Origin: a virus | IMG/VR virus record: IMGVR_UViG_3300020190_000007 | Location: 96,001-160,000 of that record | Reading direction: 5' to 3' (one strand) | DNA: 64,000 bases | Shown here: positions 2,338-42,730 of the stretch, one piece after another | Numbering within the stretch: the first letter of the stretch is position 1 | Layout of the letters: every line of letters starts with the position of its first letter | Notes under the pieces: model-generated | The model's input: only the letters and a program-made list of their open reading frames with translations | Databases searched by the model: none | What the model was told of the DNA's origin: nothing | Made by a program: the position numbers and the translations under genes

Positions 2338-2389
2338 GTTTGACTTTTTCAATTTCTTTTCTTATAATTTATAAAAAGAAAAGATTTGA

Positions 2390-3610
2390 ATGTCAAAAAT
2401 TAAAATTTTAGCAATACCCCCCGATACACATGGTGTAGGTAAATATAGAATATTAGACCCATATAAATTTATTGGAGACCATTATAGTGACGAATTTCAT
2501 GTCGACATTACATTCTCTGCTGAAAACAACGATAATTTCTTTAAGAACTACGATATTGTGGTCTTCCACAGTTTTATCCATCAAACGAGTCACGAAGAAA
2601 ATATTTCAAGAATTAAGTGGTTAAAATCTCAGGGTATTAAAACCGTAATGGATATTGATGACCATTGGTCTCCCGACCACAGACACCCAATGTATTTTCA
2701 CATTAGAGAAAGTGAGCTACCAAAGAAAAAAGCTGACATGATGAAAGAGTCGGACTACGTTACGTGTACGACTGAATATTTTGCCGATACTTTAAGAAAA
2801 AGATTAAATTTAAAAAATGTTTTAGTATTCCCTAACGCAATCGACCCAAATGAGAGCCAATTTAAACCTAAACCCACACAATCAGATAGACTTAGATTTG
2901 GGTGGCTTGGAGGTTCAACCCACTTACATGATTTAGAACAAATTAGAGGTGGAATTTCAATGATTAATAATGAATACGATAATATTCAATTTGTCTTGTG
3001 TGGTTACGATTTAAGGGGTTCTATTACTGAGGTAAATCAACAAACAGGTGAAAAAAAAACACGACAAATTCAACCCACGGAAACGGTTTGGTACAAATAC
3101 GAACAAATATTTACGGACAATTACAAAACAATTGACTCTGAGTATAAATCATATTTAATGAATTTTACACAAACACCAGAAATTGACGATAGTGATAAAA
3201 AATATAGAAGAGTTTGGACACAACCAATTGGAAAATATGGTTATAATTATAACTTATTTGATGTATCTTTAGCACCAATTATACCCTCACAATTCAACTC
3301 CTGTAAATCACAGTTAAAAATAATCGAGGCGGGTTTCCATAAAAAACCTATTATTGCAAGTGAAACATTGCCCTATACGATTGATTTAAAAACAGCATAC
3401 AAAGAAGGTAAGTTGTTAGATAACGGTAACGCTTTATTAGTACATGAAAACAAAAACCATAAACTGTGGTCAAAGTATATGAAATTATTAATAAATAATC
3501 CAAATATGGTTGAAGATTTGGGTAATAGATTATACGAGACAGTGAAAGACAAATACTCTTTAGTAACAGTTTCAAAAAACAGAACAGAATTTTTCAAATC
3601 AATAATTTAA
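2390..3610 (+). CDS. Glycosyltransferase (GT-B fold)
   Basis: DIDDHW, FGWLGGSTH, DVSLAP...FNSCKSQLKIIEAG. Confidence 0.8.
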   Translation: MSKIKILAIPPDTHGVGKYRILDPYKFIGDHYSDEFHVDITFSAENNDNFFKNYDIVVFHSFIHQTSHEENISRIKWLKSQGIKTVMDIDDHWSPDHRHPMYFHIRESELPKKKADMMKESDYVTCTTEYFADTLRKRLNLKNVLVFPNAIDPNESQFKPKPTQSDRLRFGWLGGSTHLHDLEQIRGGISMINNEYDNIQFVLCGYDLRGSITEVNQQTGEKKTRQIQPTETVWYKYEQIFTDNYKTIDSEYKSYLMNFTQTPEIDDSDKKYRRVWTQPIGKYGYNYNLFDVSLAPIIPSQFNSCKSQLKIIEAGFHKKPIIASETLPYTIDLKTAYKEGKLLDNGNALLVHENKNHKLWSKYMKLLINNPNMVEDLGNRLYETVKDKYSLVTVSKNRTEFFKSII

Positions 3611-36878: not shown

Positions 36879-37123
36879 AGTAGACCTTAAAAAGGGCCCT
36901 TCCGTTGCGTACGAAAACGGCTTGTTGGGCCCGGGTCTACCTTTTAAGCGAATATCGTATAACCGACATTATCGGTTATATTAAAGACTACTTGGTAGTT
37001 ATGTGTAATAATTTTCACCAACCCACATCAACCCCACAAAATTACTACACATAACAAGGTGTTACAGTCGCAAGGGTTCGAGCCCCTCACCTTCCGCGGA
37101 GTACTTATATATTATAAAATGGT

Positions 37124-41527: not shown

Positions 41528-41550
41528 TATCTTTGTCTTGTTCTTTGACT
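41528..41550 (+). promoter_or_regulatory. TAnnTTTG promoter element plus boxA-like element before tmRNA
   Basis: TATCTTTG at 41528; TGTTCTTTGACT at 41539. Confidence 0.6.
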
Positions 41551-41553
41551 TAT

Positions 41554-42129
41554 GGGGGTGTATGGAATTGATTGGCGTTGATATGGTAAATGGGCACGTA
41601 GTCGGATGTCATCTACGACTTTAATCCACGGTGGTAAATTTTAAACGGCAACGTTTATAACCAAATGGAAGTAGCAGGTCTTCTTGCGACTTCTAAAGTT
41701 GCAGCCTAATTGGTTGTAACTAACGGGTCGACGGACAGATAACCTTGGAACAGAAGTCCTTGTAGGGTGTGGTTTCTATCCTAAAAGAAACAAAGTGGAA
41801 GATTAGTTCTCAGTAAACCGAACCACTTTAAAATAAGGGAATTGTGAATTTCGGAGTATTAGAAAATACTGTCCTAAACGTGTAGTCCATTTATTGTATT
41901 GCGAGCAAGACGCGGGTTTTTAATCGAGCCCCTTCATATCGTGAGATATGTCGAAAATCGGATGAACTCAGGGGAAGTCTTTTAGATAATCCTGAGCCAA
42001 GCCTGATAGGAACAGGAAGGTGCAGAGACTAGTGGGTGATAGACGCTTCTATCGTAATACCACATTAGCGTCCGACATCTCGTTGAGATGATGATATAGT
42101 CCAATAATTGTCGAAACCCGCCACCTCCA
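41554..42129 (+). ncRNA. ssrA: tmRNA, intron-containing
   Basis: GGGGGTG/CACCTCC-A acceptor with G3-U70; tag ORF 41647-41709 GNVYNQMEVAGLLATSKVAA*; T-arm GCGGG-TTCGAAA-CCCGC after splicing. Confidence 0.93.
41918..42110 (+). mobile_element. Group I intron (193 nt, IC3-like) in the tmRNA T-loop
   Basis: AATCCTGAGCCAA, GTGCAGAGACT and GATATAGTCC core elements; 5' exon ends in U, intron ends in G; internal guide TCGA-GCCC pairs with both exons. Confidence 0.9.
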
Positions 42130-42133
42130 CATT

Positions 42134-42168
42134 AAAGGGAACCTCAAAAGGGTTCCCTTTTATTTTTA
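42134..42168. terminator. Terminator between tmRNA and the convergent HNH gene
   Basis: AAAGGGAACC-TCAAAAG-GGTTCCCTTT plus T-run. Confidence 0.8.
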
Positions 42169-42665
42169 ATTAAAATACTAATTAATTCATGAATATACGC
42201 ATCATCCATTTCATTTTTCATCCAATTAATTGCCCTTGAAACCCATCTAACATTTCCTTTAACATAACCTAATTTATTATCTATCCTATCTAAAGACGCA
42301 GAATATATTGGATTCTTTTTTATTTTGGTATATGATGACAACTCTAATTTTATACCACTGAATGGACAAATTCCATTTTGTAAAACCCATTGATTAGACA
42401 AATCTTCAATAGTTAAATCAATAATTTGATTTCTTTTTTTAATATTTCTAAAATGATATTTGAATTTTGAATATTCCCCACCTCTATTATTTGAGTGTCT
42501 TTGTATATCGTATCGATTTTTAACGTTTAATAAATTTTTAGTATTGTTAATACCAACACAATTTCTTGAACAAAAATTAGGTCTATTTAATTTTTTATTA
42601 CGATTTAATTCAGAATTTGATTTTTCAAATTCAATCCCACAGCTTGAACAAATACATTTTCCCAT
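42144..42665 (-). CDS. Free-standing HNH-type endonuclease with N-terminal zinc finger
   Basis: CSSC, FCSRNC, CPFSG, SLDRIDNKLGYVKGNVRWV...N.MK. Confidence 0.8.
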   Translation of the reverse strand: MGKCICSSCGIEFEKSNSELNRNKKLNRPNFCSRNCVGINNTKNLLNVKNRYDIQRHSNNRGGEYSKFKYHFRNIKKRNQIIDLTIEDLSNQWVLQNGICPFSGIKLELSSYTKIKKNPIYSASLDRIDNKLGYVKGNVRWVSRAINWMKNEMDDAYIHELISILIKNKREPF

Positions 42666-42730
42666 TTTATTACTTTATTATAAATATGGAGATAATGGGA
42701 AAAGTATGGAGGTGTTACTAATTAAATAAT

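Follow-up and report, generated by a model that had tools for sequence, protein, structure and literature searches.

An intron-split tmRNA gene and the convergent gene of a PacI-like nuclease lie side by side in the 64,000-nt stretch of viral DNA analysed here (the window; positions 96,001 to 160,000 of IMG/VR record IMGVR_UViG_3300020190_000007). Together they probably form a module for collaborative homing, with the tmRNA gene as its target; for this module we infer the cleavage, its site, the splicing, and the direction of transfer. The comparison covered about 130 related loci, with more than 100 related phage tmRNA loci, and this set was partly gathered through the nuclease itself.

An Intron-Split tmRNA Gene

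When ARAGORN was run on the raw window, no tmRNA was found. Exact excision of positions 41918-42110 (193 nt) yielded an ARAGORN tmRNA of 384 nt (41554..42130, + strand), with the tag GNVYNQMEVAGLLATSKVAA ending in ...ATSKVAA and a tRNA-like domain in which the T-arm was present; among the 49 junction combinations tried, the search succeeded only with that junction and with its sequence-identical U/U shift. Exon 1 (41554..41917, +), matched also by the Rfam tmRNA model and by river metatranscriptome contigs, contains the 5' acceptor strand GGGGGUG, the tag reading frame (41647-41709, +, stop included), the pseudoknot body, the 5' strand of the T-stem (GCGGG), and the first U of the T-loop. Exon 2 (42111..42130, +), located by direct reading and by ARAGORN on the spliced sequence, supplies the remainder of the T-loop (UCGAAA), the 3' strand of the T-stem (CCCGC), and the 3' acceptor strand (CACCUCC), and it ends with the discriminator A42129 followed by C42130; CCA is not encoded. 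Direct reading of the acceptor stem GGGGGUG/CACCUCC revealed a G3.U70 pair. Against the Rfam tmRNA model (RF00023), the unspliced gene reached 35.4 bits (E 1.9e-12; gathering score 47), and intron-less relatives scored 62-87 bits. Among intron-bearing relatives, the T-stem covaries (GCGGG/CCCGC, ACGGG/CCCGU, GAGGG/CCCUC, and AUGGG/CCCAU).

The intron (41918..42110, +) is placed directly after the first T-loop nucleotide and belongs to the subgroup IA type, with P7.1/P7.2. Rfam Intron_gpI (RF00028) matched positions 41908-42120 (+) along the full model (1-253) with 68.8 bits (E 2e-15; gathering score 50), and five related loci scored 61.7-72.5 bits. With this match, the ARAGORN result after excision, and the lack of any intron ORF longer than 40 aa, the sequence-only reading of a tmRNA gene holding a 193-nt ORF-less T-loop group I intron between U41917 and U42111 was upheld. 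Direct reading also bore out the pairings that it had proposed: P1 is formed by GGGU (41914-41917) and GCCC (41928-41931), with a U.G pair at the splice site, and P10 by UCGA (41924-41927) and the 3' exon UCGA (42111-42114), the internal guide at 41924-41931 thus providing UCGA for P10 and GCCC for P1. The omega G is G42110, the final intron base, and helices P2, P3, P4, P6, P7, P7.1/7.2, and P8 are present. In two related loci (L007 and L013), the guide is altered to GUUGA and faces the exon sequence UCGAC.

A curated structure of 53 pairs was evaluated on nine homologous introns. In it, 93% of the cells were paired, compared with 35-44% when the partners were slid, and compensatory changes were found at 24 pairs, compared with 2-5 for the slid partners; none of 500 shuffles reached this. 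P7 is invariant among the aligned introns and so says nothing for or against covariation. The P1 statistics from alignment A2 were meaningless because MAFFT had misaligned the short 5' exon; they were discarded, and P1 was read one sequence at a time. Judged by these patterns of pairing and substitution, the intron is a conserved ribozyme. Its description as minimal holds in a relative sense, as 192-197 nt is short beside the mean of 293 nt for tmRNA introns (PMC11915505), but no record is established by it; the label of smallest known group I intron, for which the literature gave no usable support, is not claimed.

River metatranscriptome contigs spanned positions 41538-41918, with a depth of 100-1000 over exon 1 in four runs, and in the same four runs, neither the intron nor the nuclease gene was covered. 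The contigs pass from 41918 (GGGUU) directly into CGAAUCCCG or CGACUCCCG plus adapter, with no intron sequence. Exon 2 of the window would read CGAAACCCG, from which the contigs differ in one letter; they come, therefore, from relatives, which may or may not have the intron in their DNA, and they were dropped as evidence of splicing, for or against. The lake samples that match this phage at 100% (runs X1-X14) are of DNA only. A gene for SmpB adjoins the nuclease gene in related phages and was not found in the 171-kb record of this phage, which is only about 55% complete; the partner of the tmRNA could be the SmpB of the host.

A PacI-Like Nuclease Gene Converging on the tmRNA

The neighbouring gene (42144-42665, - strand) encodes a free-standing protein of 173 aa, with a CxxC...CxxxC zinc finger of the MYM/TRASH type at its N-terminus and a PacI-like His-Me finger at its C-terminus (D126 R127 ... 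G133 Y134 ... N138 ... N147). It matched PHROG 3322, annotated as endonuclease (E 6.5e-22), and had no match in Pfam, where no HNH family appeared even at E 10. In the AlphaFold (AF2) model (pLDDT 86), strands 122-127 and 139-143 and helix 144-150 make up a beta-beta-alpha-metal fold, for which the best Foldseek match was PacI (3ldy_A; probability 1.0, E 0.012, about 18% identity over 104 columns), with further matches to Cas9 HNH, Gme HNH, McrA, and T4 endonuclease VII. All of 51 homologues share residues D126, Y134, N138, and N147, which align with the DR..GY..N..N motif of PacI, its metal-binding Asp and Asn being retained, and the position of the catalytic His at the end of strand 1 holds Arg127, equally invariant in the 51. 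In PacI, a Tyr stands in for the catalytic His (PMC5714182, PMC3384342). The convergent HNH gene of the sequence-only reading was right in its orientation and spacing, with a qualification as to its class: the model and the alignment assign the protein to the PacI-type Tyr variants of the His-Me finger and not to the canonical HNH enzymes. Nuclease activity is predicted as probable from the fold, the PacI motif, the invariant residues, and a dN/dS of 0.08-0.14, which corresponds to purifying selection.

The stop codon of the nuclease gene is located 13-15 nt past the tmRNA, the exact distance varying with the placement of the CCA-less end, and only about 35 bp separate the intron from the gene. 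Both genes share a bidirectional terminator hairpin (42134-42160, or 42134..42167 for AAAGGGAACC...GGTTCCCTTT and the T run), recognised by direct reading, which contains this stop codon and the final codons and has a counterpart in every convergent relative.

A double box, ACACCTCCAT plus ATTATCTCCAT, followed by ATATTTAT (42686..42716, -), precedes the nuclease gene and is conserved in relatives. The boxes are about 20 nt apart, 30-55 nt upstream of the nuclease start, and similar to the 3' acceptor strand of the tmRNA, CACCTCCAC. They are kept in 15 of the 16 relatives examined, and the pattern has one occurrence in the window, where 0.09 would be expected, and two in the 171-kb record. The boxes are candidate ghost tmRNA ends or a candidate operator. 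A search for ghost second tmRNA 3' ends in bacteria gave an exact 8-mer repeat in 2 of 36 unique loci (L203 and L205), equal to the rate in upstream controls, and a cyanobacterial second box is not claimed, as it was only a 6-mer within a terminator stem.

Linkage of the Nuclease Family to tmRNA Genes

In all 14 relatives on viral contigs found by protein, the nuclease gene abuts the tmRNA 3' end, and the same was seen in all the loci reached through eight further homologues. Of about 53 full-length bacterial homologues, about 45 have ssrA no more than 1.5 kb away. The proteins constitute an undescribed PacI-like family found almost exclusively beside tmRNA genes. Presence is sporadic among close relatives, most of the approximately 90 unique phage tmRNA alleles being devoid of the gene, and homologues occur in both orientations, with a co-directional arrangement fixed in many Nostocales. 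GIY-YIG/NUMOD3 cassettes are alternative occupants of the same tmRNA 3' flank; both these and the nuclease cassettes start at the tmRNA 3' end, and the cassette-bearing alleles have no encoded CCA. A search of metagenome contigs with a 39-nt exon-1 pattern did not recover the closest relatives, only two distant, intron-less marine loci.

Disruption of the T-Arm beside the Nuclease

The uninterrupted T-arm sequence is written here as GCGGGTTCGAAACCCGC. Intact GGGTTYRA, a criterion picked after seeing the data, was missing in 19 of the 21 nuclease-linked alleles versus 18 of the 63 others (Fisher 1e-6), and the a priori criterion, "intron or aberrant loop", gave the same answer (12/21 versus 7/63, Fisher 5e-5). 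Over phylogenetically independent pairs, the counts were 10 : 0.3 with GGGTTYRA (p about 0.002) and 8.2 : 0.3 with the a priori criterion (p about 0.008). The T-arms linked to the nuclease were disrupted in at least five different ways, and GGGTTCGA was kept by most nuclease-free relatives. Beside GIY-YIG cassettes inserted at the same flank, the T-arm was intact in 7 of 8 cases, with no disruption effect.

The sequence-only reading had named the nuclease gene beside an intron-less ssrA as grounds for its own refutation, and, taken literally, this is what was observed: in most nuclease-bearing relatives, the tmRNA next to the nuclease has no intron. In these intron-less copies, the T-arm was almost always changed, with loops of 6 or 8 nt or a T-stem other than GGG; hence, the intron would be one of several immunity solutions and not a necessary partner.

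Several observations weigh against targeting of the T-arm. A canonical 7-nt T-loop is present in nine nuclease-linked alleles, two of these (L014 and L017, with a nuclease that is 44% identical) keep GGGTTCGA, and co-directional phage and cyanobacterial homologues are also found beside normal T-arms, so that specificity must differ between subclades or the site must extend elsewhere. Aberrant T-loops (GGCRGYA) were also seen in five nuclease-free alleles, and two position-3 introns (L029 and L076) occur without the nuclease. The bare 8-bp site GGGTTCGA cannot be the entire target and was rejected as such: no genome-wide avoidance of it was detected in the nuclease-bearing phage, whose record has four copies, one of them at window position 37074 within a tRNA-like 3' half.

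Some of these data would also be expected if an ordinary free-standing homing endonuclease had its target elsewhere than in the T-loop, such as at the CCA end or the cassette flank, with the intron an independent, neutral neighbour linked by chance. The prevalence of intron-less tmRNAs among the nuclease-linked ones, the position-3 introns without nuclease, and the normal T-arms at some linked loci all agree with such a passenger, as does the common start of the HNH-type and GIY-YIG cassettes at a tmRNA 3' end that has lost its encoded CCA. However, neither the disruption of T-arms in at least five ways with the nuclease but not with GIY-YIG nor the homologues encoded within T-loop introns would find an account in it, and we regard it as unlikely.

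Signs of Mobility

The seven alleles with intron plus nuclease required at least six changes on the tmRNA-body tree, which is approximate because tmRNA genes are recombinant, and their introns are 80-93% identical; the module was thus found on at least six unrelated tmRNA bodies. Comparison of L004 with L063 revealed 100% identity over the 100 nt that precede the T-stem, with divergence exactly at the T-stem. In addition, the exact spliced exons of the window (in L079/L093), of L007 (in L064/L088), and of L005/L006 (in L063/L065) were found in alleles devoid of intron and nuclease, which, by their sequence, are putative sensitive alleles. A simple insertion of the nuclease gene was rejected, as in three pairs, the nuclease-free genome carried about 1.5 kb of other genes in the place of the 0.5-kb cassette. 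The traits of free-standing homing endonucleases are recognisable in an optional gene that is sporadic, placed between conserved neighbours, and located at a recombination boundary.

Intron-encoded endonucleases typically cut at the insertion site of their intron. In the crAss-like phage cr6_1 and in gut MAG contigs (L156-L158), a homologue of the nuclease is encoded antisense within a T-loop intron, in the interval that separates the ribozyme core from the 3' exon. ARAGORN found nothing in these crAss-like RNA genes, either spliced or unspliced, and they are consequently called tRNA-like at the 3' end only, not tmRNA.

A second alternative is that the nuclease serves mainly as a weapon that destroys the tmRNA genes of competitor phages or of the host, the intron giving self-immunity with no role in gene conversion; its purpose would be the exclusion of rivals or a translation rescue that relies on the phage tmRNA. 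The T-arm data speak for it as they do for collaborative homing, and so do the purifying selection on the nuclease and the investment of the phage in its own tmRNA, with SmpB beside the nuclease in relatives. Nevertheless, gene conversion produces just such a mosaic of one module across unrelated tmRNA bodies and such a sharp recombination boundary at the T-stem, and exclusion and homing are compatible with each other; as an explanation in its own right, this one appears quite improbable. A domesticated, non-selfish partner of the tmRNA, acting in its processing, its regulation, or DNA binding, is very improbable indeed, for adjacency to ssrA across phyla that would reflect function, the fixed arrangement in many Nostocales, strong purifying selection, and conserved tmRNA-end-like boxes in the promoter region are offset by sporadic presence among close relatives, varying orientation, antisense location within introns, an intact nuclease active-site motif, and company with damaged rather than normal T-arms.

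Collaborative Homing as the Preferred Explanation

Collaborative homing, also proposed from the sequence alone, survived the analysis through the T-arm association, the different picture at GIY-YIG cassettes, the scattering of the module, the identical-exon alleles, and the intron-encoded homologues, although the intron lost its place as an obligatory partner. According to this explanation, the 173-aa protein, a member of a PacI-like (tyrosine-variant) His-Me finger family resident beside ssrA, would act as a free-standing homing endonuclease that recognises the DNA of the tmRNA 3' domain, namely the T-arm around GGGTT|CGA and probably the acceptor strand too. The tmRNA genes of co-infecting relatives without nuclease would be cut, and repair off the nuclease-bearing genome would copy into the victim the nuclease gene along with whatever lies up to a few dozen bases from the cut. 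A carrier would have to render its own tmRNA gene uncuttable. The 193-nt intron would do so by splitting the site in DNA, and its presumed self-splicing would restore a normal T-loop in RNA, so that immunity would cost tmRNA function nothing; other lineages would have mutated T-loops or T-stems in its place. Since the intron is only about 35 bp away from the nuclease gene, both would be co-converted and travel as one module. In the gut-phage relatives, the same nuclease family has come to lie within the intron.

A broader reading, which we put forward tentatively, would see one undescribed PacI-like, tyrosine-type endonuclease family specialised on tmRNA in phages and bacteria, with living examples that keep the whole proposed route of mobile group I intron assembly. 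In the first stage, the nuclease would stand free by an ssrA that has no intron and that owes its immunity to mutations in the target site; in the second, represented by the window, it would stand free by an ORF-less T-loop intron; in the third, found in the crAss-like and gut contigs, it would lie antisense inside the intron. The same reading would include an arms race driving functional tmRNAs to non-canonical T-loops of 6 and 8 nt and would take the paired tmRNA-end-like boxes as the nuclease's own operator, with autorepression in the style of I-TevI.

T-loop tmRNA introns are catalogued by hundreds, and few have a recognisable (LAGLIDADG) endonuclease; if this family targets the T-arm, it would be their missing mobility engine. 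It would also be a new homing-endonuclease family that Pfam misses, would provide a natural series of stages for the model from collaborative homing to composite intron, which now rests on two phage systems, and would explain the odd T-loops of many phage tmRNAs overlooked by gene finders. Furthermore, the protein, compact at 173 aa, would be a candidate for a site-specific nuclease whose tyrosine chemistry is unusual.

Comparison with Known Systems

Intron-form tmRNA genes were reportedly first described by Williams in 2002. The tmRNA database of 2025 catalogues 883 sequences with a group I intron in the T-psi-C loop, treated as bacterial, and found only LAGLIDADG genes, inside 23 of the tmRNA introns, with no mention of an external or antisense PacI-like nuclease (PMC11915505). 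The intron described here shares with them the T-loop location, the U:G at position -1 in P1, the terminal omega G, P7.1, and a splicing that restores the T-arm, but it resides in a large lake phage. Its position after the first loop nucleotide corresponds to the minor subsite 2 of that study if the numbering starts at the stem-loop junction, and introns of related phages are at subsite 3 in the same numbering.

Collaborative homing has been described for MobE and the nrdB intron of T4 (PMC2790892) and, as collaborative (trans) homing, for F-CphI and the ORF-less psbA intron of cyanophage S-PM2 (Zeng et al. 2009, cited through PMC6083498 and PMC3984707). There, the intron is likewise thought to block self-cleavage and the nuclease to give mobility to the intron, and the enzymes belong to other families, Endo VII-like for F-CphI and canonical HNH for MobE, compared with PacI-like here. 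Unlike both, the target in our case is an RNA gene and not a protein gene, the cleavage is a prediction, and natural relatives offer T-loop mutation as another putative form of immunity, together with a stage in which the intron encodes the nuclease.

With PacI (PDB 3ldy/3m7k; His-Me finger group 20, PMC5714182), the protein shares the motif D-R-x-D-x3-G-Y-x3-N-x8-N-x2-K and the omega-loop Tyr replacing His. PacI itself is a restriction enzyme that acts as a dimer on an 8-bp site and contains two zinc sites, whereas the window protein carries a MYM/TRASH-type zinc finger at its N-terminus and behaves in genomes like a homing endonuclease. Finally, T4 SegB (PMC2330249, through PMC6582537; PMC2988022) resembles our system as an optional nuclease beside stable-RNA genes, with alternative cassettes and recombination boundaries at the nuclease; it belongs, however, to the GIY-YIG enzymes and acts in a cluster of tRNA genes where no intron takes part, in contrast to the tmRNA-specific family of the window, which is present in both bacteria and phages.

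An intron interrupts the phage tmRNA gene

The IMG/VR record holding the window (170,860 bp) was judged to be ~55% complete, which suggests that it derives from a large phage, and 14 lake-water metagenome runs contain it at 100% identity. The Rfam tmRNA model matched positions 41554-41939 (35.4 bits, E 1.9e-12), with a disturbed 3' end on the unspliced gene, and ARAGORN called four tRNAs at 35.6-36.9 kb and no tmRNA in the raw window. When positions 41918-42110 were cut out by script, a second ARAGORN run returned a tmRNA at 41554..42130, 384 nt long and carrying the tag GNVYNQMEVAGLLATSKVAA; among 49 junction combinations tried, only this removal and its sequence-identical U/U shift gave one. 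As read from the sequence, its acceptor stem is GGGGGUG/CACCUCC, with G3.U70 present, and its T-arm once spliced is GCGGG-UUCGAAA-CCCGC. No SmpB gene was found in the ~55% complete record.

A group I intron was detected by Rfam at 41908-42120 (+), with 68.8 bits over a gathering score of 50. It is inserted after the first T-loop nucleotide (position 2) and ends in G; P1 reads GGGU:GCCC and places a U.G pair at the splice site, and P10 is possible between the guide UCGA, adjoining the P1 strand, and the first four bases of exon 2. The T-loop site, P1, P10 and 193-nt excision had all been proposed correctly in the sequence-only reading. Related contigs yielded eight homologous introns, five of them at the same site (192-197 nt) and three shifted one nucleotide on to position 3 (GGGUU|CGA), with guide GACCC, 224-228 nt and an extra P9 hairpin. 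The homologues were aligned and analyzed with RNAalifold and a hand-curated structure (P1, P2, P3, P4, P6, P7, P7.1/7.2, P8, P10), giving 93% paired cells and 24 pairs with compensatory changes, versus 35-44% and 2-5 with partners slid, values reached by none of 500 shuffles. As judged from this alignment, the window intron is a conserved ribozyme, assigned to a subgroup IA type, like the tmRNA introns of PMC11915505, because a hairpin sits between P7 and P3'. The T-stem halves that it splits covary among phages (GCGGG/CCCGC, ACGGG/CCCGU, GAGGG/CCCUC, AUGGG/CCCAU), which indicates that selection acts on the spliced RNA.

A PacI-like nuclease converges on the tmRNA gene

The neighboring ORF (42144-42665, -; 173 aa) ends inside a terminator hairpin common to the tmRNA. 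Pfam had no family for it even at E 10, PHROG matched it to 3322 ('endonuclease'), and none of 197 homologues of 170-210 aa was named. Residues C9, C32, C36, D126, R127, Y134, N138 and N147 are invariant in 51 homologues, C6 is near-invariant, and at its N-terminus the protein is similar to a MYM-type zinc finger (2das, E 0.05). The AlphaFold model (pLDDT 86) showed the strand-loop-strand-helix of a His-Me finger, with the restriction enzyme PacI as top Foldseek match (probability 1.0, E 0.012); the next matches were Cas9 HNH domains, Gme HNH, McrA and T4 endonuclease VII. Profile alignment set ASLDRIDsskGYvkgNiRWVSRAINfMK against GVDRSDSFEGYSPQNARLACFICNRIK, a shared motif. PacI lacks the catalytic His, whose job is done by a Tyr in the omega loop (PMC5714182, PMC3384342), and the nuclease would likewise be a Tyr variant with a DR..GY..N..N-type motif; the earlier label 'HNH' therefore fits the fold but not the catalytic residue. 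Among intron-linked nuclease genes dN/dS was 0.08-0.14, which shows, from the pattern of substitution, a working protein.

In nearly every relative, the nuclease start is preceded at 25-80 nt, on the same strand, by two boxes ~20 nt apart with the consensus CAYCTCCAY (42686-42716 in the window), after which come ATATTTAT and the start codon. The window contains a single instance of this double pattern, against 0.09 expected, and the whole 171-kb record contains two. The boxes resemble the 3' strand of the tmRNA acceptor; the cassette may have brought them along as remnants of tmRNA ends, or the nuclease may bind them. Clear duplicated tmRNA ends were present in loci L012, L014, L046, L203 and L205. 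A second partial tmRNA 3' end was also seen just past the real one (L046, L082/L129, L100; L012; L014-L017; L203; L205), for example CTACCTCCAG-ACCATTAATTAAT-CTACCTCCAC, often as one arm of the terminator hairpin.

Arrangement in related phages

The tmRNA converged on the nuclease gene in 14/14 viral contigs found via the protein, five with the intron and nine with a full intron-less tmRNA above the Rfam threshold. Co-occurrence of intron and nuclease, named as a check by the sequence-only reading, was seen in five contigs, and the arrangement that it had taken to speak against its proposal, a nuclease gene next to intron-less ssrA, literally occurs in the other nine. Eight more homologues traced to contigs showed the same arrangement, one with a position-3 intron. 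Searching with a DNA pattern taken from the tmRNA body added more than 100 further phage tmRNA loci. Counting unique alleles, intron T-arms were accompanied by the nuclease in six, a GIY-YIG/NUMOD3 cassette in none and neither in two; aberrant loops by three, none and five; and canonical T-arms by nine, eight and 45, respectively. Cassette-free alleles mostly encode ...CCA-CCA, and the encoded CCA is lost with either cassette; therefore, the cassettes abut the tmRNA gene end.

The GIY-YIG/NUMOD3 (Seg-like) cassette begins 38-52 nt past the tmRNA end, downstream on the same strand, in eight unique alleles (L019, L049, L053, L058, L063, L070, L096, L134). In L052 and L116 its left end (CACTTCGACTTTTTTGAGTTTTCGAC) is kept and the ORF is missing, suggesting that the cassette was lost. 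SmpB is encoded directly past the nuclease gene in related phages (L146 966-1397, L148/L149 986-1468, L089), giving the order tmRNA-nuclease-SmpB, so the cassette there lies between both partners of trans-translation. GOLLD RNA (Rfam 298-327 bits), without a match inside the window, was detected on the minus strand ~1.2-1.6 kb upstream of the tmRNA in L008 (6106-6514), L009 (5084-5493) and L010 (3782-4191). A 123-nt tRNA-model match in L005 (7204-7326, -; 41 bits), not called by ARAGORN, may represent a tRNA interrupted by an insertion or intron. Finally, three tandem 57-nt repeats outside the window (G000:C1:12938-13059; L150 1500-1620), each with GGGTTCGATTACCACGGGTTCTTCAACTATAACAGG, are probably a repetitive coding region.

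Nuclease carriers avoid an intact T-arm

No allele of the window's nuclease clade (>50% identity) keeps an uninterrupted GGGTTCGA. These alleles show either a position-2 or position-3 intron, 6-/8-nt loops (CGGGU-UUCGAU-ACCCG, GCGGU-UUCAAU-ACCGC, GNGGC-UUCGAU-GCCNC) or non-GGG T-stems (AGCGG, CGCAG, GCGAG). The comparison was carried out on a tree of the tmRNA body (345 nt upstream of the T-stem, T-arm excluded, 84 unique rows). The site GGGTTYRA was not intact in 19/21 alleles with the convergent nuclease versus 18/63 others (Fisher 1e-6), and 14 phylogenetically independent pairs gave 10.0 in the same direction versus 0.3 opposite (median p 0.002). With the criterion 'intron or aberrant loop', set in advance, the counts were 12/21 versus 7/63 (Fisher 5e-5; pairs 8.2 : 0.3, p 0.008). 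GIY-YIG-linked alleles retained the site in 7/8 cases, so a cassette at the flank alone leaves the T-arm undisturbed. It is thus well supported that nuclease carriers avoid an intact T-arm; the simplest explanation would be that the nuclease recognizes DNA including the T-arm, forcing its carriers to alter it. Among such solutions, only the intron would leave the RNA unchanged.

Strongly non-canonical T-loops (GGCAGUA, GGCGGCA, GGCGGUA, AGUCAGAG, UUAUCGUAUA) were also seen in nuclease-free alleles (L026, L050, L075, L080/L108/L118, L067, L020), and may be either resistant leftovers from an arms race or functional variants. Separately, a tRNA-like 3' half at window 37060-37100 (+), ~200 nt past tRNA-Gly and called by neither ARAGORN nor Rfam, reads AGGG-TTCGAGC-CCCT followed by CACCTTCC, and has an intact GGGTTCGA in a genome that carries the nuclease.

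Probable mobility of intron and nuclease

Seven alleles with intron and nuclease required at least six changes on the tmRNA-body tree, a scatter equal to that of shuffled labels; identity among their introns is 80-93% and follows that of the nucleases. Sister loci L004 (intron and nuclease) and L063 (GIY-YIG) share 84-100% identity across 900 nt, the last 100 nt being 100% identical, part at precisely the first base of the T-stem, and regain homology 123 nt past the nuclease start. Intron-less, nuclease-less alleles with exact spliced exons were found for the window (L079, L093), L007 (L064, L088) and L005/L006 (L063, L065); potential homing sites therefore exist in the population. Plain insertion of the nuclease cassette was rejected, as the corresponding stretch in nuclease-free partners is occupied by ~1.5 kb of other genes.

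The view of the nuclease as a mobile element linked to the 3' end of the tmRNA is well supported. We infer collaborative homing at ssrA, in which the nuclease would cut the T-arm, the intron would splice, and both would then move together. This interpretation, already advanced in the sequence-only reading, is partly supported: the tie of a mobile nuclease to the tmRNA 3' end favors it, and the absence of the intron from most carriers goes against its simple form.

Homologues in other phages and bacteria

Genes 27-47% identical to the nuclease were found by tblastn in 160 phage records. In the crAss-like cr56_1, the RNA gene on which the nuclease converges ends GGAC-GGGGC-UAUCGUAU-GCCCC-UAGCUCCAC, again with an aberrant T-loop. 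The order in cr6_1 is 5' exon GGACACGGGUU|, group I core (Rfam 96.7 bits), nuclease on the opposite strand and CGACUCCCGUAUGCUCCAC, ~871 nt from the 5' splice site; its exact 3' junction is ambiguous because A precedes CGACU. Gut MAG contigs L156-L158 share this design with a clean omega G and 3' exons G|CGACUCCCUCUACCUCCA and G|CGAUUCCGCAUACCUCCA, and their P1 covaries with the T-stem. The protein tree placed the free-standing cr56_1 and intron-internal cr6_1 nucleases as sisters, and showed repeated changes of T-arm state within the window's clade.

The RNA bodies in L154 (cr56_1, 2990-3371) and L155 (cr6_1, 2389-3430), both on the minus strand and without an ARAGORN call, match Rfam RAGATH-20 and RAGATH-7-assoc, and share the end GACUGUUAGGUC...GGAC + T-arm + GCUCCAC, which forms a 3' domain like that of a tRNA. 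Both orphan motifs may belong to tmRNA-like RNAs of phages.

A bacterial search with one genome per species yielded 177 stretches encoding relatives, with ssrA within 1.5 kb for ~45 of ~53 full-length homologues; no tmRNA was found near more distant matches sharing only the catalytic domain. The homologue lies ~80 nt 3' of ssrA, on the same strand, in many Nostocales and Oscillatoriales, and ssrA-linked homologues were also found in Sulfurovum, Legionella, Verrucomicrobiota and Marinimicrobiota contigs and in a Bacteroidetes MAG with permuted tmRNA. Hymenobacter edaphi has ssrA with a position-3 intron, followed by the nuclease. The homologues of many filamentous cyanobacteria (L162-L208: Calothrix, Rivularia, Scytonema, Oscillatoria and others), 33-41% identical and ~80 nt past chromosomal ssrA on its strand, lie in open frames of ~290-350 aa, stop to stop.

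Comparison with known systems

Literature searches returned no paper linking this nuclease family to ssrA and none on intron-form tmRNA in phage, although absence from the searched literature is not proof. T-loop introns are an established form of tmRNA genes: PMC11915505 catalogues 883 unique sequences, covering four subsites, and reports LAGLIDADG genes in 23 of 844 introns. Collaborative homing by an ORF-less intron and a free-standing neighboring endonuclease is known from F-CphI/psbA, and related trans homing from MobE/nrdB (PMC6083498, PMC3984707, PMC2790892). The locus pairs an intron-form tmRNA with probable collaborative homing. To these two known themes it adds an endonuclease family, undescribed and Pfam-invisible, that is specialized on ssrA, as well as a natural series that runs from free-standing to intron-encoded nucleases.
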